37,901 nt of DNA, from NCBI GenBank assembly GCA_937875035.1, contig CALNCF010000328.1, positions 1 to 37,901 of the forward strand, in the 5' to 3' direction. Within the stretch, counting starts at the first letter, position 1, and the number at the start of each line of letters is the position of its first letter. Origin of the DNA: an uncultured Sphingobacteriaceae bacterium. GTDB taxonomy: Bacteria; Bacteroidota; Bacteroidia; Sphingobacteriales; Sphingobacteriaceae. The notes beneath the pieces were generated by a model. That model searched no databases, was not told the DNA's origin, and saw only the letters and a list, made by a program, of their open reading frames with translations. Shown here one piece after another: positions 5,491-17,583 of this stretch. Made by a program: the position numbers and the translations under genes.

Positions 5491-5811
5491 AAGGAAGTCG
5501 ATTTAGTAAAAAGGGCGGTAAAAGAAACACCCTTCTCACAGAATTTTGAAATATCGAAAGAGGTTTCTACCTTGTATTCATTCGGCGATACCCTGCGCCT
5601 TACCCAACAGTATTAAATTTAATAGTTCGATATAGCTTCCGAGTTCTGGGGGTGAATAAATTCATGAGTGAGATTTCGTGAGATGGATTGGATATGGTTC
5701 GAGCCCGAGTAGGGCTACGACTATATGGACAAGGAAGTATCGGGAAGGTAGAAAAAAAGGGCTGAGAAGGGTGGGTTGGTAAAGAGTTATAAAATCTACA
5801 ATAGGAAAACG

Positions 5812-6813
5812 ATGTTAGTATTATCTGAAAATTTACTGCAATCTGACCCGAATACCATCGAGTTACATTATTGGTTTCATGACGAAACACATTTGATGGA
5901 CGCTTTAATTCAGAACAGATGTGAATACGAATTTTTAGGCATCCTAAAAGAAATAGCTTCAACCTTTAAGGTTGAAATAACAATTGAAACGGAACCTCTT
6001 GCAAACGGGGGATTGAAAAGACTTTTTAAAATTGCGAGTAAAGATGTAAACAAGAATACAATCATAGTCACACTAATAACATCACTTTTAGCCGCAATAA
6101 TCGTAACACCGATAGCAACCTCAATTAGTAAAACAACCGAAATTCTTATTCAAAAACTTTTTGAAGATTCAGAATTAAAGGAGTTAGAAAAAGAAAAATT
6201 AAAGCTTGAAATTGAAAAATTGAAGCAGGAAACGCGGAGCAATATTTTAAAATTGGATAGTAGTAATGTAGTCAAAAAGAAGAGGTCAAATTTCTATGAA
6301 TCACTCGACAATTATCCAAAAATTGAAAAAGTAACTTTTATTGCTTCCGGTGAGAATCAAGCTTCATTGCTGGAAGAACAAACTGTTTTCAGGGCTGAAT
6401 TTAAGCAATTTATTCTTGTTACTGATGACCTAGAACCAAGTGAGGAGGATAATGCGATTATTGAGATAATTTCACCAGTACTGAAGAAAGGAGCGTATAA
6501 ATGGATGGGGATATATAATGGTGAAAATGTTTCTTTTAGTATGAAATCGAAGGAGTTTAAGAACTTAATTCAGACCGGCCAAGTACAATTCAAAAATGGA
6601 ACTTCAATTAACTGCCTGTTAACAATCAAGAAAAAAATTGACAATGAAGGCATTGAAAAAATAATCTCAATCGAAGTACCTAGAGTAAATCACTATTTTG
6701 AAAATGACAAACCAGTAGAAACATCGGAAGGGAAGAAGCATCGGCGTAAGAAAGAATACGAAAGATCACAAACAGAACTCTTTAGTAGTAATCAAGATAG
6801 TACAGAACTTTAA
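5812..6813 (+). CDS. Hypothetical membrane-anchored protein (N-domain, one TM helix, K/E coiled coil, beta-rich C-domain)
   Basis: The ORF track starts at TTG 5776 and the first ATG is at 5812 (MLVLSENLL). The hydrophobic segment TIIVTLITSLLAAIIVTPIATSI maps to about 6058-6126. The heptad-like EDSELKELEKEKLKLEIEKLKQE maps to about 6157-6243. I recognise no catalytic motif. Confidence 0.7.
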   Translation: MLVLSENLLQSDPNTIELHYWFHDETHLMDALIQNRCEYEFLGILKEIASTFKVEITIETEPLANGGLKRLFKIASKDVNKNTIIVTLITSLLAAIIVTPIATSISKTTEILIQKLFEDSELKELEKEKLKLEIEKLKQETRSNILKLDSSNVVKKKRSNFYESLDNYPKIEKVTFIASGENQASLLEEQTVFRAEFKQFILVTDDLEPSEEDNAIIEIISPVLKKGAYKWMGIYNGENVSFSMKSKEFKNLIQTGQVQFKNGTSINCLLTIKKKIDNEGIEKIISIEVPRVNHYFENDKPVETSEGKKHRRKKEYERSQTELFSSNQDSTEL

Positions 6814-6834
6814 AATAATTTTAAAAAAATAATT

Positions 6835-7413
6835 ATGGGATTAATGGTTCATAGCCTGGACGGTATACCGGAAGAACACCACAGGGATTATTTCATCTAT
6901 TTGCTTGATTACGGTTGGAGTGAACCATTAAGTGATGCCCTAAGAAACAATTTCGGGAAAATGGCAACTCTTGCTTCGGAAAGGAAAAACGCAGTTGTTA
7001 TAATGCGAACAGATGCTGGTGTACATTTTAGCGATGAAGTATTATCGTGGCACAATTTCAATGGGGAGGAAGTAGAAAAAGAACAACTATTACCCGCAAT
7101 TCTAGTGACTAATAGGCATCCTGCCGAATTTCGTAAGCGAGCGTTAAGAGAAGAGTGCGAGGCTGAGATTAATTTAAAAATGATTCTTTTTCCTCTTAAG
7201 AAATATTGTCAAAGCACAACTGATGTTGTAGCTCTTATACAAAAGATATTTACCAGTATTAAACTTGAGAGGGATTTGGATGATTTTGGAATTGTCAGAG
7301 AAAGGAAGAAAGGAATAAAAGGTGCAATAGCCAGTTCGATTTTATTAGAACCTAATTTTGGTGGATTAGGTTTTAGCTTTAATAAGTTAATTGAATATTT
7401 CAAAGAAGAATAA
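6835..7413 (+). CDS. Hypothetical protein (192 aa), second gene of the island operon
   Basis: The ATG lies 22 nt after the upstream stop. There is no TM segment, P-loop or nuclease motif that I recognise. Codon usage matches the neighbouring AT-rich genes. Confidence 0.7.
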   Translation: MGLMVHSLDGIPEEHHRDYFIYLLDYGWSEPLSDALRNNFGKMATLASERKNAVVIMRTDAGVHFSDEVLSWHNFNGEEVEKEQLLPAILVTNRHPAEFRKRALREECEAEINLKMILFPLKKYCQSTTDVVALIQKIFTSIKLERDLDDFGIVRERKKGIKGAIASSILLEPNFGGLGFSFNKLIEYFKEE

Positions 7414-8196
7414 ATGGAACAAAATGCTATAAATAATGAATTGAATTCTGAAGAATATAAACGCGAATGGCGAAGACTTATAGAAATGCGAAAATCTATT
7501 ATAGCATGTCTGGCATTTTGCTATATGAATTCAGCTAGGGATGGAAGCAGTGGTGGTCGAAATTTTTTCCTGCGTATGATCGATGATATCATTCAATCAA
7601 TCATATCAATAGAAATAAATGCTAATAACGGAATAGTAAATACTTGTAGAAGGGAGGCTCGTTATTTAGTAGAGTTGTCAATTAAGAGTTATTTTATTGT
7701 AACAAATAATACTAAAATAACATTTGAACAGCAAATAGATGAATATGAAAAACTATTAGATTCATCAAATATAAATCCTATTAACACTTTAAGTTTTCAT
7801 TATTTAACCGGTCATGAAGAAGAATTTAAAATGTATGTTAAGAGGTTATATGGTTACTTATGTATGTATTCTCACTCTAGCTCCTATCAAATTCGTGAAC
7901 GTTTGACCAGAGCCGAAGCGGGTAGAACTATCGGCTTTGAAGGAGTGCAAGAACTTCACAAATTGAATAATGATATTGAGAAAGTATTTTCTACTGTTAT
8001 TGTAATGATCTTTCATTCTGTTGCGCCTTATGTCACTGCTGATTTTTTGGTTGAACCTAACGGAGAAACGATAGATTGGTACTTCAATAAGTCAAAGTTT
8101 ATATGTTTGATAGATCAACAATTTGATTATAAATCAGAGCGACAATCAATATTGGCTGATTTGAATATCAGGAGAACAAATCGCGTAACATTTTAA
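7414..8196 (+). CDS. Hypothetical, apparently all-alpha protein (260 aa), third gene of the island operon
   Basis: The ATG directly abuts the upstream TAA (7411-7413), which suggests translational coupling. The segments CRREARYLVELSIKSYF and LYGYLCMYSHSSS loosely recall the AbiV/DUF5677-type helical families, but this is unverified. Confidence 0.7.
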   Translation: MEQNAINNELNSEEYKREWRRLIEMRKSIIACLAFCYMNSARDGSSGGRNFFLRMIDDIIQSIISIEINANNGIVNTCRREARYLVELSIKSYFIVTNNTKITFEQQIDEYEKLLDSSNINPINTLSFHYLTGHEEEFKMYVKRLYGYLCMYSHSSSYQIRERLTRAEAGRTIGFEGVQELHKLNNDIEKVFSTVIVMIFHSVAPYVTADFLVEPNGETIDWYFNKSKFICLIDQQFDYKSERQSILADLNIRRTNRVTF

Positions 8197-8213
8197 TGTT
8201 TCGTAGATATTCT

Positions 8214-8474
8214 TTATACTTTCGTATTACCAGAGTAATTCCATACCCCACTCTGCCCAATAATAATATGATCCAAAACTTTTACACCTATAAACTCTCC
8301 GAGTAATTCTAATCGCTTTGCAAGTATAATATCATTTGCACTTGGCAGAAGATTGCCGGAAGGGTGATTGTGAGCCATGATAACACTTGATGCGTTTACT
8401 TTCAATGCAACCTGGAAGATCAATAAAGGATCAACTGAGGTAGAGCTGAGACCACCGGAACTAAAACTTGACCG
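8214..8474 (-). pseudogene. 5'-truncated RadC-like JAB/MPN domain gene fragment
   Basis: It translates to SSGGLSSTSVDPLLIFQVALKVNASSVIMAHNHPSGNLLPSANDIILAKRLELLGEF...SGVWNYSG. This is paralogous to residues about 73-151 of the intact copy at 9107..9562. An in-frame stop lies at 8475-8477 and no ATG precedes the domain. Confidence 0.7.
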
Positions 8475-8795
8475 TTATGTCATGTAAACAATTAGCAGTA
8501 ATAGTAGTTCAATGGGAACTTGAATTCCATGTAAGAAGATTCAATTGCTTATATCTATAAAATAGATTTACCTTTTAAAGGGTCAATTTATAATTGAACG
8601 GAAAACAAAATGTGCCAAATTGACAATTACAGCCAAATGGCACATAAGTTGATGTTGCCATATACCAAATAATTAATGGATTAAAACTGTTTGGGAATGG
8701 GTTGTCACTGTTGACGCTACGAATATATAAAGATAACTCTACTATTAAAGAATCTGTGGGTTCGTACAATACGAATAAAACAAAACCAAATTGAT

Positions 8796-9077
8796 ATGGC
8801 AGAGAACATACAAATTTCCTGTATCAACAAAGATGATCGTTACAGTGCTTATGAGCGAATAAAATATGTAGGAGGAGTTCATAATGGTTTAAGATGGAAG
8901 CTTCCATTAAATGACGCAATACGCGGAATTGAAAATGGAACTTATACATTTTATACTAATGTAAATGGTCATGTAAGGCGGGTTGTTATAGCAACGAGAA
9001 GTGGTGTTAAATACCTAAAAACCGAAGCTGATAATGACACGCCTGACAATTTGCTTAGCTTGGCTGAGTGTCCTTAA
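8796..9077 (+). CDS. DUF3892 domain protein
   Basis: 93 aa. ...ERIKYVGG...WKLPLNDAIRGIENGTYTFYT...GVKYLKTEADNDTPDNLLSLAEC matches my recollection of the DUF3892 pattern. Confidence 0.75.
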   Translation: MAENIQISCINKDDRYSAYERIKYVGGVHNGLRWKLPLNDAIRGIENGTYTFYTNVNGHVRRVVIATRSGVKYLKTEADNDTPDNLLSLAECP

Positions 9078-9106
9078 AATAAGTGCCCATTTTGGGCACT
9101 TATTTT
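9076..9106. terminator. Bidirectional stem-loop between convergent genes
   Basis: A 14-bp stem, aaaataagtgccca (9076-9089) / tgggcacttatttt (9093-9106), has A/T runs on both sides. It sits between the DUF3892 gene (+) and radC-like gene (-). Confidence 0.8.
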
Positions 9107-9365
9107 TTATTTTCCTGAATAGTTCCATATTCCACTTTGCCCAATTATAATATGATCCAGTACCTTCACATATAAAAACTCTCCCAATAGTTCTAATCTT
9201 TTTGCAAGCACCATATCATTCGCACTTGGAAGTAGATTGCCGGATGGATGATTGTGAGCCATAATAATGCTTGAAGCATTGACCTTCAAAGCTACCTGAA
9301 ATATGAGCAAAGGGTCTACTGCAGTGGAACTGATGCCGCCGGAACTGACTCCATAATATCCTAAT
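9107..9365 (-). repeat. Diverged direct repeat with 8214..8474 (the two radC-like copies)
   Basis: By-eye nucleotide alignment of the two segments shows extended colinear similarity with many substitutions. The encoded peptides differ at only a handful of positions. Confidence 0.7.
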
Positions 9366-9562
9366 ACTCTTCCTGCCCTATTCATATAAATTGCGATCAT
9401 TTCTTCGCGGTGATTTAAGCTACCAGGTTTCCAAATAGCTTTCAGGAGTTCGTGGACTTGATCCGGATTTGTAATTACCGGATGATCCTCAATCGGATCT
9501 TTGTAAATGTATGACAACTCAATTTCCGGAGGGCGAGAAAGTCTGAACTTCTTCTTTGGCAT
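9107..9562 (-). CDS. RadC-like JAB/MPN domain protein (DUF2466 family)
   Basis: 151 aa with the JAMM-type motif HNHPSGNLLPSANDMVLAKRL preceded by SSGGISSTAVDPLLIF. Confidence 0.85.
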   Translation of the reverse strand: MPKKKFRLSRPPEIELSYIYKDPIEDHPVITNPDQVHELLKAIWKPGSLNHREEMIAIYMNRAGRVLGYYGVSSGGISSTAVDPLLIFQVALKVNASSIIMAHNHPSGNLLPSANDMVLAKRLELLGEFLYVKVLDHIIIGQSGIWNYSGK

Positions 9563-9694
9563 CAGCGATAAGTCTTATGGCCGTCGAAAGTTACCCAGAG
9601 TTATACAGTATTGATAACGCCCCCGCAGGAACAACATCTTGACACTTTCATATAATTACCTGATATTGTATTGATTAACCAATAGAAGGCCTGT

Positions 9695-14808: not shown

Positions 14809-14814
14809 ACATAA

Positions 14815-14853
14815 AAAAGAGGATGCTGGTTTTTCAGCATCCTCTTCTCTTTT
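14815..14853. terminator. Rho-independent terminator between convergent genes
   Basis: The stem aagaggatgctg / cagcatcctctt has a gttttt loop, with an A run before it and ctctttt after it. Confidence 0.8.
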
Positions 14854-14896
14854 AGCAGCGCCCCGTGGCGGGACGATGATATATATCTTAGATGAA

Positions 14897-15244
14897 TTAA
14901 ACCTTCTTTACAAATTCAGATTTCAGGGCCATGGAACCGAAGCCATCGATCTTACAGGAGATATTATGATCCCCATCGACCAGGCGGATGTTCTTTACTT
15001 TGGTTCCCGACTTTAATGGCTTGGGAGCACCCTTCACCGAGAGGTCCTTGATCACCATCACCGTATCACCATTCTGTAATTCATTTCCATGCGCGTCCAT
15101 CACACGTCCCTCGGCATTCCCCGCTTCCTCCGCAGACTCTGTTCCGGGTATCCACTCATGGAAACATTGGGAACATACCATCATCTCCTGGTTAGGATAA
15201 GTCAGATCGGAATGGCATAAAGGGCAGTGTACAGTAGCGCTCAT
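14897..15244 (-). CDS. yjdM: Zinc-ribbon protein YjdM/PhnA
   Basis: An N-terminal CPLC...CSQC zinc ribbon, then [15 protein letters not shown]...[39 protein letters not shown] chose the ATG at 15244 ([10 protein letters not shown]) rather than the longer ORF-track start. Confidence 0.85.
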
Positions 15245-15433
15245 TTTATTTGGGTATAAGAGATTTGAAGGTCCTGAGGACAGGGATTTGTTCCCTGACA
15301 ACCGAATAGGATACTCAGGGGTAAAGGTAGGAAATTATTGGGATAAAACTATTGAAGATGAGTTCTGTAAGATATTGAAACTATTAATAGGCTCCTTAAA
15401 TATTCACACAAAGAATAAAAAGCATTTACCAAT

Positions 15434-15811
15434 CTATTTTTCAACCCAATACGCAAATGATTGAGGTGGTGATAAATTAAAATCATCTTTTAAACATTTT
15501 GGTCTTTTGTACTTTCTCGTTTTTTTAATCTTTATTGCAAAACCTTCATTTTTGTTAGCGAAATACTCGTAGTAGAATTCTTTACTAATACCCGAATATT
15601 CTTGTGTTAAGTCCCAAAGTGTAGATAAATCATAATTTAGAACTTCATCTATTTCAAATTCTCCTATTACTTGTTGAACAGGAGATGATGCATAAACAAT
15701 TATTGATTTTATATTTTCATTCTTAAAAATTGACTTTCTAAATTCAAATTTTTTTGTACCATCAAATATCTTAAATGCGAACTCTGGTTTGATTGATAAT
15801 ATTACCTTCAT
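15434..15811 (-). CDS. Stand-alone ASCH domain protein (COG4933-like)
   Basis: MKVILSIKPEFAFKIFDGTKKFEFRKSIFK...IIVYASSPVQQVIGEFEI...GFAIKIKKTRKYKRP...PPQSFAYW matches the COG4933-type ASCH pattern as I recall it. The ATG at 15811 lies 4 nt after the upstream stop (15816-15818). Confidence 0.8.
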   Translation of the reverse strand: MKVILSIKPEFAFKIFDGTKKFEFRKSIFKNENIKSIIVYASSPVQQVIGEFEIDEVLNYDLSTLWDLTQEYSGISKEFYYEYFANKNEGFAIKIKKTRKYKRPKCLKDDFNLSPPQSFAYWVEK

Positions 15812-15815
15812 CTTG

Positions 15816-17339
15816 TTATTTCTTATTATATGCAAACTTAATTAAATCCTCGAACTGGTCGTTAGTCAATTTAGCAAAACCTTTCGGTAAGCTCATTGGA
15901 TCTGCGAATATTTTTAACTCGATCAAGTCATTAAGAGTTGGCTTAGGCGTTGGTAACGAGTGAGCATATAGAAAGTTAATTACAAAAGGTCTATATTTTG
16001 GAAACTTATCCCACCATTTTGTTTTTAAATTCTCTTTAGAGATCATCGTCCGTCTATTACAAGCATTAAAAAAATCGTCGAAATCCTTAAAGTCATTTTT
16101 AACACTCTCTACAATACAAATTGTTGTAACTGTACTGGAATACTTTTTAGGACTTGTTTCACCAATTCTATATATCAAGATAACATCCCCAGATTTTAAG
16201 TGTCGATCAGATGAATGAGAAATATAAACTTTACTAATTCTGTTTCTGTGTGGTTCATTCTCTGTATACTTGTCTTTGTCTTCTTTTGTATTTATACTAT
16301 CTGGGAACAACTCGGTGTGATATTGAGGCTCTATCTTAATCAGATATTTATTAGTTTGTCTTGAAAAGAATGGAAAGGTAAGTTTAGGGTTTTCAATATT
16401 TACAGGATTTTTTTTATTAAAATCTCTCACATAAACTAACTCATCTCCATTTTGAGTTGTTTTAATCCCATGCCTTGTAAAGCCCCACTCTTCAAGCATC
16501 TCAATTAGTTGTTCTTGTTCAGGTCTTTTGTCGAAAATTGTAACATAAATTTCTTCAACTTTAAAAAGTAAAGCATTGTCAAATATCGTTTTCAGGAATC
16601 GTTCACCGATTTTGTAACCATTACCCGTTACTTTTAATGTTCCAATCTTCAATCTTTTTTTAGGTTTGAAAACGGGGGTTATTTCAGAATAGCTCTCTTC
16701 TCCAGCCTTTTCAATTTTTATGAAGAGGAATGCGGTTAGTTGATTATCATTATAACATACATAGCATGGCTGCTCGGATTTACGATTAAACCATGTATCA
16801 AATTCCTCATAATCACTTCTAAAACTGTCAAAAAAACTATCTTTCAAATTAACTTCGGCAAAATCAACTTTTTTGACAGCCAAAACCTTATGCGTAACCA
16901 AGTCTGGATTTTGTGCTATAGCTTTTTCTAAAAAACTTTGGATACGAAATACCTTATCGCCAATTCCTAAAATATTTGCCTTTGCATGAATTTTTTTGTC
17001 CTCTGAAATTAGGATATCTACCCTATCTTCAAATACTTCATTTAATATTTGAGTATCATTAATATCATTCTGTAAGCGATCATATTGTTGACTTACTTGT
17101 TTGATTTTATCACCTAATGGGGCTTGATATTTTAATTGATTGTAACTCTCAATTTTTACATTCATTGTGCTTAAAGAATCTTGATCCTTATATCTTTTTA
17201 ACTCTTCTATTGTCAAGGGATGAATATATTTATCATATTTGAGTTTATCCAGCCAATTGAAAAGTTGTCCGATGCCAAGATTGTGGGCCTTATTGGCTTC
17301 CCGATGTATGATGATATTTGTATCAAGTAAGACTTTCAT
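15816..17339 (-). CDS. Three-domain fusion protein: N-terminal PIN nuclease, central GNAT-like acetyltransferase, C-terminal PUA-like (EVE/ASCH-type) domain
   Basis: PIN: VLLDTNIII (D6), IEELK, NDINDTQIL, ILISEDKK. GNAT-like (about aa 155-305): AFLFIKIEK...LKIGTLKVTGNGYKIGERFLKTIFDNAL...IYVTIF...LIEMLEEWGF. PUA-like (about aa 325-505): KYLIKIEPQY...LKSGDVILIYR...TTICIVESV...LPKGFAKLTNDQFEDLIK. Confidence 0.7.
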   Translation of the reverse strand: MKVLLDTNIIIHREANKAHNLGIGQLFNWLDKLKYDKYIHPLTIEELKRYKDQDSLSTMNVKIESYNQLKYQAPLGDKIKQVSQQYDRLQNDINDTQILNEVFEDRVDILISEDKKIHAKANILGIGDKVFRIQSFLEKAIAQNPDLVTHKVLAVKKVDFAEVNLKDSFFDSFRSDYEEFDTWFNRKSEQPCYVCYNDNQLTAFLFIKIEKAGEESYSEITPVFKPKKRLKIGTLKVTGNGYKIGERFLKTIFDNALLFKVEEIYVTIFDKRPEQEQLIEMLEEWGFTRHGIKTTQNGDELVYVRDFNKKNPVNIENPKLTFPFFSRQTNKYLIKIEPQYHTELFPDSINTKEDKDKYTENEPHRNRISKVYISHSSDRHLKSGDVILIYRIGETSPKKYSSTVTTICIVESVKNDFKDFDDFFNACNRRTMISKENLKTKWWDKFPKYRPFVINFLYAHSLPTPKPTLNDLIELKIFADPMSLPKGFAKLTNDQFEDLIKFAYNKK

Positions 17340-17542
17340 TGATTGTTATTCATTTAGTATAACTCATAATTAAAGCAATGGCCCATTGAATACATCCAGC
17401 CAAAAATTGGACAATACAAAACTTTAGATAACTAATAGTTACAAGCAACAGATATACTGATAAAAGACAATGAAATCAAATTTAATTTCAAAAATTGATC
17501 ACCAACCAGTTTTTCACGACTTTTTACTAAATTAACATCTGT

Positions 17543-17583
17543 AAAAGCAAAAGCCCTCCTCATTCGAGAAGGGCTTTTGCTTT
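17543..17583 (-). terminator. Rho-independent terminator downstream of lon
   Basis: A long stem, gcaaaagccct (17547-17557) / agggcttttgc (17570-17580), is extendable by flanking A/T pairs. A T run follows on the minus strand. Confidence 0.8.

Follow-up and report, generated by a model that had tools for sequence, protein, structure and literature searches.

The locus lies in a 37.9-kb stretch of DNA (37,901 nt, hereafter the window) from a Bacteroidota-like metagenome-assembled genome. An AT-rich island of ~2.2 kb, with a GC content of 0.30-0.32 against ~0.53-0.57 in the adjacent DNA, is located between the genes lon and yjdM and carries a cassette of two genes, A and B (Table 1), whose GC content was 0.306 compared with 0.493 elsewhere in the window. 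A sequence-only reading had reported a 507-aa ORF in such an island, and the ORF of gene A was found exactly as claimed, in an island of 31% GC, with its stop codon at 15816-15818; a gene caller run independently on the source contig returned the same ORF. The ATG of gene B is at 15811, 4 nt past the stop codon of A, and its 125-aa product was likewise the one returned by the gene caller.

Table 1. Features of the two-gene cassette and its borders (positions in the window)
Feature	Position	Strand	Evidence
Gene A, PIN-GNAT-EVE-like protein (PDC-M11A; GevT-like with an added PIN domain)	15816..17339	-	ORF, PDC-M11A profile match
PIN-like domain of A (aa 1-148)	16896..17339	-	Sub-threshold Pfam PIN_3/PIN_4 matches; D6, E46, D95, and D114 present
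GNAT-fold acetyltransferase domain of A (aa 149-312)	16404..16895	-	Foldseek, conservation
PUA-like (EVE/ASCH-type) beta-barrel of A, C-terminal (aa 313-507)	15819..16403	-	AF2, Foldseek
Gene B, 125-aa ASCH protein (PDC-M11B; GevA-like)	15434..15811	-	Pfam ASCH, PDC-M11B, gene caller
Upstream AT-rich intergenic region, presumed promoter location	17340..17543	-	Sequence
Terminator hairpin of the upstream lon gene, left island edge	17544..17583	-	Inverted repeat and T-run
Downstream AT-rich spacer between gene B and yjdM/phnA, right island edge	15302..15433	-	Sequence

At the island edge, the lon terminator is formed by an inverted repeat of 18 nt with 94% complementarity and a T-run behind it. 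A scan for sigma-70-type promoters gave 13 matches against 12 expected, and Bacteroidota promoters deviate from this consensus. No terminator-like hairpin was present on the minus strand of the downstream spacer. RM, BREX, and CRISPR genes were absent from the window; matches to BrxL, DolB, and PDC-M16 were probably cross-matches of housekeeping AAA+ proteins (Lon, ClpB). Of possible signs of mobility, no tRNA gene, integrase, convincing flanking direct repeats, or Rfam RNA was found, and a CsrB match of 19.5 bits, far under the gathering score, was dismissed as chance.

Gene A encodes a fusion of a PIN domain, an acetyltransferase, and a PUA-like domain. The three domain assignments made from the sequence were all right, as judged from profile, Foldseek, and AF2 evidence, and the motifs quoted for them were all in place, with TGNGYKIGERFL at aa 238-249, LKSGDVILIYR at aa 381-391, and LPKGFAKLTNDQFEDLIK at aa 484-501. 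A single-sequence search of A against the PDB gave no match. At E<=1e-3, 4257 homologues were retrieved, and the family comprised 1759 clusters at 50% identity, indicating that the fusion architecture is far beyond chance. An AF2 model of the full-length protein, derived from 35 close homologues, was of poor quality (pLDDT 64) and adequate for the GNAT assignment alone.

In the N-terminal part, the Pfam profiles PIN_3 and PIN_4 aligned over their whole length (aa 2-116 with profile positions 1-115 of 115) with E 2e-3 to 4e-3, under the gathering score, whereas PIN_3 matched 17 of 96 diverse relatives of A with a best E of 9e-7. A PIN profile gave weak matches alone against the PDB (1o4w, E 0.06; Utp24, E ~1), and the full-length model provided no structural confirmation of this part. 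D6, D95, and D114, which the sequence-only reading had named as expected acidic residues, were invariant across the 35 close homologues; the conserved Glu is E46 instead of the E45 it had given. Judged from these residues, the acidic site of the PIN domain of A is intact. In the wider family, D6, D95, and D114 were retained in ~75% of 73 PIN-bearing representatives, the Asp triad was degenerate in 25 of the 73, and the whole domain was absent from 23 of the 96 sampled representatives, so that PIN is an optional part of the family.

For the central domain, A itself had no Pfam GNAT match. When the AF2 model was searched with Foldseek, all 50 of the top 50 matches were GNAT acetyltransferases (prob 1.0, target TM 0.5-0.64), and Acetyltransf_1 matched 9 of the 96 relatives with a best E of 4e-6. 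This is the most conserved part of the A family: among the 96 diverse members, Y177, W183, E210, Y265, and F287 were 100% conserved, and K231, T267, and E300 at least 97%. The TGNGYKIGERFL loop lies between beta4 and alpha3, the place for the acetyl-CoA pyrophosphate loop, which bears out the position of the acetyl-CoA-loop-like motif recognized earlier. Its agreement with the canonical Q/R-x-x-G-x-G/A is partial: G241 and G245 were each 89% conserved, and K/R stands in place of the central Gly. The loop was badly modelled, with pLDDT <50 at aa 234-247.

The C-terminal 195 aa were modelled with a pLDDT of 93.9. The best Foldseek match of this barrel was the Zymomonas ASCH protein (prob 1.0, target TM 0.73), further matches were MJECL36, YqfB, the McrB N-terminal domain, and YTH domains, and Pfam EVE matches in relatives mapped to the same domain. 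In hhalign, the barrel was related to the B family (E 3e-4), while the GxKxxExR octapeptide of B was unmatched in A, and the ASCH catalytic octapeptide was not found in the barrel. P323 was 100% and K370 98% conserved. GNAT-EVE is thus the invariant core of the family, and conservation of the GNAT residues at 97-100% and of K370 at 98%, against a PIN domain that is missing or degenerate in many members, points to GNAT as the core effector.

The earlier reading had treated A as a single-polypeptide system and had overlooked the downstream ASCH gene, to which A is tied. Gene B matched Pfam ASCH (E 4e-5) and PDC-M11B (E 8e-52), both matches beginning at residue 9 of the mechanical ORF, and a B-like gene was immediately downstream of the A homologue in all 39 of 39 related loci. 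Single-chain fusions also occur in relatives, with the orders PIN-GNAT-EVE-ASCH (P0124, B-HMM E 1e-30) and ASCH-PIN-GNAT-EVE, and the A homologues of at least 13 plasmids have a gene for ASCH or HTH-ASCH as an immediate neighbor, the HTH-ASCH partners being present on alpha-proteobacterial plasmids. Together with the 4-nt spacing, these results indicate that B is translationally coupled to A. A separate gene for a small kinase-like P-loop protein, the AAA_17 ATPase (E 2e-15), lies upstream in 20 of 40 related loci. It was absent from the window by tblastn, and since AAA_17 is optional in the class described below, its absence is compatible with membership.

The B family profile aligned over its full length with the ZmASCH structure (E 3e-18), and the GKER octapeptide is present in B (G18-K20-E23-R25), with conservation of its residues at 95% or more among 39 orthologues. 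In ASCH erasers of ac4C, the Lys and the Glu/Thr of the octapeptide G-x-K-x-x-E/T-x-R are catalytic, and deacetylation of tRNA ac4C by TthASCH, EOLA1, and TRIP4 requires the Lys and Glu of the GKER motif (preprint 10.64898/2026.02.27.708502). B therefore has both the ASCH fold and the octapeptide by which an ASCH amidohydrolase is recognized, and the retained Lys/Glu dyad suggests that A and B may be a writer/eraser pair. The activities reported for ASCH proteins conflict, being ssRNA RNase in one case and weak ac4C removal from tRNA in the other. ZmASCH, the nearest relative of B with a studied activity, was first reported as an ssRNA RNase; it did not hydrolyse free ac4C and caused no significant in-vivo drop in tRNA ac4C, whereas ac4C34 was removed from purified tRNA in vitro by all ASCH proteins tested.

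The pair represents a known system, one that has been described computationally and listed as a phage-defence candidate. Bell, Wolf & Koonin (2020, BMC Biol; PMC7641849) described an operon class of '(PIN)-GNAT-EVE' with ASCH (and AAA_17), credited it to Iyer et al. (2013, NAR 41:7635), predicted it to be a toxin-antitoxin or defence element, and stated that none of the modules had been experimentally characterised. The domain order PIN-GNAT-EVE and the ASCH partner are as in our locus, which differs in being without AAA_17, without an adjacent type I RM system, and in a Bacteroidota-like genome. In PADLOC, A and B both matched the PDC-M11A/B HMMs across their full length, A with E 1e-206 over aa 1-505. 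The definition of PDC-M11 rests on its location inside type I RM, BREX, or DISARM systems, and PDC systems are untested candidates (Payne et al. 2024, bioRxiv 10.1101/2024.01.29.577857). Unlike those guilt-by-embedding nominations, the pair here is outside any defence system; embedding in RM, BREX, or DISARM is a property of some instances and not of every member.

A third point of comparison is a lambdoid coliphage (GenBank PV340567.1), in which a PIN-less relative is annotated as GevT toxin and its partner as GevA antitoxin. GevT was 36% identical to aa 160-503 of A (E 3e-63) and GevA 47% identical to B (E 2e-43), with gene order, tight coupling, and PADLOC families in common. Unlike A, GevT has 357 aa, lacks PIN, and is prophage-borne. 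The labels 'toxin' and 'antitoxin' come from that GenBank annotation and from analogy, and are unverified. Considering the full-length PADLOC matches, the domain folds, the operon class of Bell et al., and the similarity to GevT/GevA, the cassette belongs almost certainly to the (PIN)-GNAT-EVE + ASCH class, that is, to PDC-M11. The author of the sequence-only reading knew of no characterised system with this architecture. The class has in fact been described and named (Bell et al. 2020, PDC-M11, GevT/GevA), although it does not amount to a biochemically characterised enzyme family: our literature search returned no experimental paper on GNAT-EVE proteins and no publication on GevT/GevA.

Bell et al. 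(2020; PMC7641849) also offered a counter-toxin scheme, in which phage GNAT-EVE proteins damage the host by acetylating aminoacyl-tRNAs and host PIN-GNAT-EVE proteins recognize and degrade the acetylated tRNAs, so that PIN would be the working part and GNAT-EVE a recognition scaffold. This is consistent with the distribution of the two forms, in which phages (lambdoid, Lactobacillus, and others) have the PIN-less one and chromosomes or plasmids the one with PIN, and with the invariant PIN acidic residues in the subfamily of A. However, the GNAT core residues were equally strongly conserved in PIN-bearing and PIN-less proteins, which is unexpected for a mere scaffold. In addition, one third of the PIN-bearing representatives are without the Asp triad, and the phage pair, although it has no PIN domain, already bears the annotation of a full toxin and antitoxin. 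We give this scheme only a slim chance of being correct.

The cassette is mobile and AT-rich, as the earlier reading of foreign DNA had held. In related loci, the cassette had a GC content of 27-35% in hosts of 30-49% GC, copies from different Bacteroidota families were 85-88% identical, relatives were found on phages and plasmids, and the insertion sites were scattered across genomes. One related copy (L038) looked disrupted. Horizontal acquisition is most likely. Among 146 non-redundant neighbors of related loci, defence genes were scattered only, the others being mostly housekeeping genes. In the lambdoid phage, the GevT/GevA pair sits just after cI. In phage lambda, this slot is that of rexAB.

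These features bear on two readings without a conflict role. According to one, A and B would be ordinary housekeeping enzymes that add and remove an RNA modification, such as a tRNA acetyltransferase carrying its own PUA-type RNA-binding domain alongside a recycling amidohydrolase. PUA-like domains are indeed common in RNA-modifying enzymes, and ASCH proteins take ac4C off tRNA. Against it are the patchy distribution and foreign base composition, the near-identical copies in distant hosts, the carriage by phages and plasmids, the lack of a TmcA/NAT10-type helicase/ATPase domain in A, and the frequency of PIN toxin-like domains in the family, making a housekeeping role extremely improbable. According to the other, the cassette would be a selfish addiction module with no defence role, persisting by post-segregational killing or by drift on mobile DNA. 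A solitary small island amid housekeeping genes, the lack of defence neighbors in the window, the scattered insertion sites, and the disrupted appearance of L038 would all suit such a module. However, the family is recurrently embedded in RM, BREX, and DISARM and found near defence genes, the prophage slot is typical of superinfection-exclusion genes, and the sequence is strongly conserved; pure selfishness is very unlikely in our judgment.

Instead, we propose that the cassette is probably a toxin-antitoxin-like conflict module, acting in abortive infection or defence. This role is suggested by the GC content, the near-identical copies across families, the occurrence on phages and plasmids, the site after cI, the nearby defence genes, and the embedding of PDC-M11. 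Points against it are that this copy is outside RM, BREX, and CRISPR and that the neighbors of relatives are mostly housekeeping genes. The modification-sensing effector targeting nucleic acid that had been suggested for A agrees with the comparative-genomics predictions for the class.

In the mechanism that we envisage for this module, GNAT would be the universal effector, transferring the acetyl group of acetyl-CoA to an amine on a nucleic-acid-linked substrate, which may be the aminoacyl group of a charged tRNA or an exocyclic base amine such as cytosine N4. The EVE-like barrel would direct the enzyme to a nucleotide that is modified or otherwise specific, and PIN would add RNA cleavage in the subfamily of A. 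In uninfected cells, the ASCH partner would hold the system back, whether by hydrolysing the acetyl mark with the Lys20/Glu23 dyad, by occupying the same substrate, or by binding A. The fusion of A to ASCH in some relatives speaks against a labile protein antitoxin of the classical kind. The balance would be tipped, and translation arrested, when a phage infects the cell or the cassette is lost. These biochemical details are tentative and more likely wrong than right; the non-canonical acetyl-CoA loop and the inactivity of ZmASCH on free ac4C speak against them.

A more specific version, by analogy with DarT/DarG but with acetylation, is a writer-reader-eraser toxin-antitoxin system acting on nucleic-acid acetylation. 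Here, GNAT would write an N-acetyl mark on RNA or DNA, for instance N4-acetylcytidine or another acyl-base of this kind, the EVE-like barrel would read this mark or a neighboring modification, PIN would cut the marked RNA, and ASCH would be a dedicated amidohydrolase erasing the mark via Lys20/Glu23. That all four steps hold jointly is unlikely. If true, reversible base acetylation would for the first time be the basis of a toxin-antitoxin or defence system, and the widespread GKER-type ASCH proteins would have a natural cognate writer.

The substrate might also be DNA. In a proposal of Iyer et al. (2013), as reported by Bell et al. (2020; PMC7641849), GNAT would acetylate a DNA base, either for self-marking of the host or on a phage base that is aminated or hypermodified; modified DNA would be read by the EVE-like and ASCH domains, and PIN or associated nucleases would act on unmarked or marked nucleic acid with an RM-like logic. 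According to Bell et al. (2020; PMC7641849), PIN-GNAT-EVE proteins are associated with type I RM, HsdS of Methanohalophilus carries a fused ASCH domain, and HTH-ASCH fusions, which are frequent, suggest DNA binding. We confirmed HTH-ASCH partners on alpha-proteobacterial plasmids, and the barrel of A resembles the McrB N-terminal and YTH-type readers of modified bases. On the other hand, a PIN domain of the type in A is usually an RNase, the B family is nearest to an ASCH protein that binds and cleaves ssRNA, the window holds no RM partner, and the fusion of a B-like ASCH domain to ribosomal protein L22 points to RNA or the ribosome. DNA-base acetylation has a low probability.

Comparison with characterised systems placed the cassette outside several known groups. 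Type II GNAT toxins (TacT, AtaT, ItaT, KacT) have the GNAT fold in common with A, and aminoacyl-tRNA acetylation is plausible as the toxic act of A by analogy. However, TacT-type toxins are single-domain proteins of ~160-180 aa that are neutralised by a DNA-binding RHH/DUF1778 antitoxin, whereas the GNAT of A is within a 507-aa three-domain protein whose partner is ASCH and not RHH, and membership was rejected. VapC toxins have a PIN domain with an acidic triad like that of A but are single-domain and paired with VapB. In A, PIN is fused to GNAT-EVE, and upstream there is no small gene but a 200-nt AT-rich spacer to the lon terminator, so VapBC was also rejected. Type IV restriction enzymes with EVE or PUA domains fuse a modified-base reader to an effector as A does; their effectors are HNH or PD-(D/E)xK DNases without GNAT, while PIN is the sole nuclease-like domain of A and GNAT stands between it and the reader. 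A is not a member of TmcA/NAT10 either, since it lacks the DUF699-type helicase/ATPase domain (membership also needs a tRNA-binding domain). DarT/DarG combines a transferase toxin with a partner removing the mark, the logic proposed here for A/B, but is without homology to them, DarT being an ADP-ribosyltransferase of ssDNA and DarG a macrodomain protein.

The ASCH relatives of B include ZmASCH (PDB 5GUQ/5GUS), TthASCH, YqfB, EOLA1, and TRIP4-ASCH. Y40 and S118 of B correspond to Y47 and S128 of ZmASCH and the GKER octapeptide is also kept in B, whereas K53 of ZmASCH is replaced by Q46. Although the plasmid genes beside A homologues resemble ZmASCH, the ZmASCH gene, unlike B, is not beside any GNAT-EVE gene. 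The 375-aa gene upstream of it in Zymomonas had no similarity to A or GevT, indicating that ZmASCH is a solo relative and not a cognate partner.

For this window, the result is modest: the cassette belongs to a catalogued class, and B is to be annotated together with A. The interest lies in the family, which is large (the 1759 clusters span bacteria, archaea, phages, and plasmids) and has repeatedly been nominated for defence or toxin-antitoxin roles. With a working model, both an EVE-like reader and a very common clade of ASCH proteins would gain a function, and nucleic-acid acetylation could turn out to be an immune or toxin chemistry.

Gene A, encoding the PIN-GNAT-EVE-like protein, was returned by an independent gene caller as the identical ORF, and its position (15816-17339, minus strand), product length (507 aa), and location inside an AT-rich island agreed with the sequence-only reading. 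The island covers ~2.2 kb and has a GC content of 0.30-0.32, compared with ~0.53-0.57 in the flanking DNA. We looked for a tRNA gene, an integrase, a flanking repeat, and an Rfam RNA at the gene A/B island, and none was found. A CsrB candidate at 14809-15152 of the window (minus strand) scored 19.5 bits in Rfam against a gathering score of 71 and overlapped the yjdM coding region, and was regarded as a chance match. Separately, another AT-rich island (window 5500-9600, GC ~0.33) carries a further PADLOC candidate, PDC-S42, and resembles a second small islet of foreign or defence genes.

Features of the two AT-rich islands and their borders in the window
Feature	Position	Strand	Remarks
PDC-S42	5776-6813	+	first AT-rich island; PADLOC E 3e-110
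ORF	6835-7413		no family match
ORF	7414-8196		no family match; weak DUF5677 match
DUF3892 protein	8796-9077		first AT-rich island
RadC-like JAB protein	9107-9562	-	first AT-rich island
Gene B	15434-15811	-	125 aa; ATG at 15811, 4 nt past the stop codon of gene A; Pfam ASCH E 4e-5
Gene A	15816-17339	-	507 aa
lon terminator hairpin	17544-17583		one border of the gene A/B island
yjdM/phnA			opposite border of the gene A/B island

For the PIN domain, Pfam PIN_3/PIN_4 aligned end to end with gene A (aa 2-116 on profile positions 1-115 of 115), yet remained below threshold; PIN_3 matched 17 of 96 diverse family members, with a best E value of 9e-7. The acidic residues had been proposed as D6, E45, D95, and D114. 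In the family alignment D6, D95, and D114 held, whereas the conserved glutamate was E46 rather than E45; D6, E46, D95, and D114 are all present in gene A and were invariant in 35 close homologues. A full-length AF2 model computed from an alignment of close homologues reached only mediocre overall quality (pLDDT 64); its top 50 Foldseek matches in the PDB were all GNAT acetyltransferases (probability 1.0, target TM 0.5-0.64), among them Naa50/NatC, PaiA, RimI, phosphinothricin acetyltransferase, and SpeG. The TGNGYKIGERFL motif (aa 238-249), previously called acetyl-CoA-loop-like, does occupy the loop between beta4 and alpha3, which in GNATs binds the acetyl-CoA pyrophosphate, and fits the canonical GNAT motif only in part. 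The C-terminal 195 aa, folded separately with a diverse 70-sequence alignment (pLDDT 93.9), superposed on ZmASCH, the crystallised Zymomonas ASCH protein (Foldseek probability 1.0, target TM 0.73), with weaker matches to MJECL36, YqfB, the McrB N-terminal domain, YTH domains, and PH1033; Pfam EVE matches in relatives fell on the equivalent domain. The PIN, GNAT, and PUA-like calls are therefore all supported, confirming the original observation and its domain reading.

Gene A is translationally coupled to gene B, an ASCH partner that had gone unnoticed in the sequence-only reading. PADLOC assigned gene A to PDC-M11A (E 1e-206, full length) and gene B to PDC-M11B (E 8e-52), both phage-defence candidate families. 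Among 40 related loci from reference genomes, gene B directly followed gene A in all 39 with downstream sequence. The canonical ASCH octapeptide is present in gene B (G18-x-K20-x-x-E23-x-R25), with at least 95% conservation across 39 orthologues and the catalytic dyad kept. The Lys and Glu of this octapeptide are essential for N4-acetylcytidine (ac4C) removal from tRNA by TthASCH, EOLA1, and TRIP4 (2026 preprint, 10.64898/2026.02.27.708502). One main rival reading of A and B is that they are paired housekeeping enzymes for RNA modification. The PUA-like barrel of gene A is only distantly related to gene B (hhalign E 3e-4) and, in comparison with the B family, lacks the octapeptide, which suggests a reader and not a hydrolase.

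The B-family profile matched ZmASCH over the full length (E 3e-18), and the invariant Y40 and S118 of gene B correspond to its Y47 and S128. ZmASCH was published as a Mg-dependent ssRNA RNase. In the 2026 preprint it showed no activity on free ac4C and no significant in-vivo effect, although every protein tested there cleared ac4C34 from purified tRNA in vitro (10.64898/2026.02.27.708502). On at least 13 plasmids, a ZmASCH-like gene, often HTH-fused, directly adjoins the gene A homologue. The ZmASCH gene itself has no such homologue beside it: the 375-aa protein encoded 48 nt upstream on the same strand (Zymomonas mobilis, L044:3825-4952) has no Pfam match and no GNAT-EVE similarity, is unrelated to gene A or its phage relative GevT, and may be a different partner for the ZmASCH-type clade. 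Gene B also matched the C-terminal 'unknown domain' (profile positions 190-309, E 1e-15) of NCBIfam NF008917, a '50S ribosomal protein L22/unknown domain fusion protein'; some organisms thus encode L22 joined to a B-like ASCH, a hint of a ribosomal or RNA connection.

The sequence-only reading knew of no characterised system with such an architecture; the class has in fact been described, named, and catalogued (PMC7641849; PDC-M11; GevT/GevA). Bell, Wolf & Koonin 2020 described exactly this architecture as the (PIN)-GNAT-EVE class, with an ASCH protein encoded in almost all operons and often an AAA_17 ATPase; PIN-bearing forms show an association with type I RM and other defence loci, PIN-less forms are found in prophages, and none of the modules had been characterised experimentally (PMC7641849). 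In their account, Iyer et al. 2013 gave the first description and proposed DNA-base acetylation. Two further main rivals are a self/non-self system based on DNA acetylation, attributed to that work, and the counter-toxin scenario of Bell et al. PDC-M11 is one of 145 untested candidates put forward because they occur embedded within RM type I, BREX, or DISARM systems (Payne et al. 2024, 10.1101/2024.01.29.577857); no RM, BREX, or CRISPR system was found in the window. The phage collection contains PIN-less homologues from lambdoid coliphages, from Lactobacillus and Methanothermobacter phages, and from others. GenBank PV340567.1 labels one such pair, directly after cI, 'GevT toxin' and 'GevA antitoxin'; identity is 36% between GevT and gene A (over aa 160-503) and 47% between GevA and gene B, and both match the PDC-M11 HMMs. 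Our literature search turned up neither a publication on Gev nor any experimental work on GNAT-EVE. The window cassette is one more member of this catalogued class, in its minimal two-gene form.

An exhaustive search for the gene A family yielded 1759 clusters at 50% identity with three main architectures: GNAT-EVE only (~350 aa), PIN-GNAT-EVE (~500 aa), and forms of ~620 aa with an additional N-terminal ASCH. In the last (P0138-type), an ASCH domain other than B-type precedes PIN-GNAT-EVE, whereas representative P0124 (632 aa) carries a B-type ASCH after it (B-HMM E 1e-30). These single-chain fusions confirm that ASCH and the large protein work jointly, and argue against a simple labile antitoxin. 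Constraint across the domains was very uneven in the family alignment. GNAT residues Y177, W183, E210, Y265, and F287 were invariant, K231, T267, and E300 at least 97% conserved, and K370 of the EVE-like domain 98% conserved, whereas the PIN Asp triad was degenerate in 25 of 73 PIN-bearing representatives (about a third), one coherent lineage having G-I-x-N at the positions of D6-E46-D95-D114 (alignment A3). This pattern argues that GNAT-EVE is the functional core and PIN an accessory, and degeneracy suggests a repurposed, non-catalytic module. Gene A's own subfamily retains an intact PIN site, and gene A combines this site with a GNAT core under strong constraint and a PUA-like reader in one three-domain protein.

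The A/B cassette is mobile. Its GC content was 27-35% in every locus regardless of that of the host (30-49%), and copies 85-88% identical occurred in Chitinophagales, Cytophagaceae, Cyclobacteriaceae, Aureispira, and one Melainabacteria-labelled bin. A purely selfish addiction module is the remaining main rival. This bin (L037, DUDU01000096.1, labelled Candidatus Melainabacteria) is assigned to another phylum and carries 88%-identical copies of A and B; either the cassette crossed between phyla recently or the contig was wrongly binned. One Flavobacterium MAG copy of gene A (L038:1035-2506) is split over two reading frames near aa 320, being either a pseudogene or an assembly error. The surroundings vary by lineage and consist largely of housekeeping genes, among which defence genes (for example, AbiE, HerA, Old, PycC, and SspA) turn up now and then. 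In 20 of the 40 loci, gene A is overlapped at its start by a gene for a ~172-aa AAA_17 (P-loop) ATPase (E 2e-15; for example, L017:9483-10001 and L005:7514-8047) whose Walker A motif is GGIHGVGKGT; the window has no such gene. Two loci (L039:8805-9851, L006:8937-10001) encode an extra ~350-aa protein between AAA_17 and gene A, with no Pfam or PADLOC match; judged by eye, its C-terminal stretch is hydrophobic and possibly membrane-spanning, and a role as a further effector or sensor is conceivable.

As for mechanism, the GNAT domain would acetylate an amine linked to nucleic acid, either on aminoacyl-tRNA, as TacT-type toxins do, or on a base. The EVE-like barrel would recognize the target, PIN would add RNA cleavage in the window's subfamily, and the ASCH partner would restrain the system, perhaps through removal of the acetyl mark. 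By analogy with the writer/eraser logic of DarT/DarG, A and B might then form an acetyl writer/eraser toxin-antitoxin pair, a reading we put forward as a long shot.
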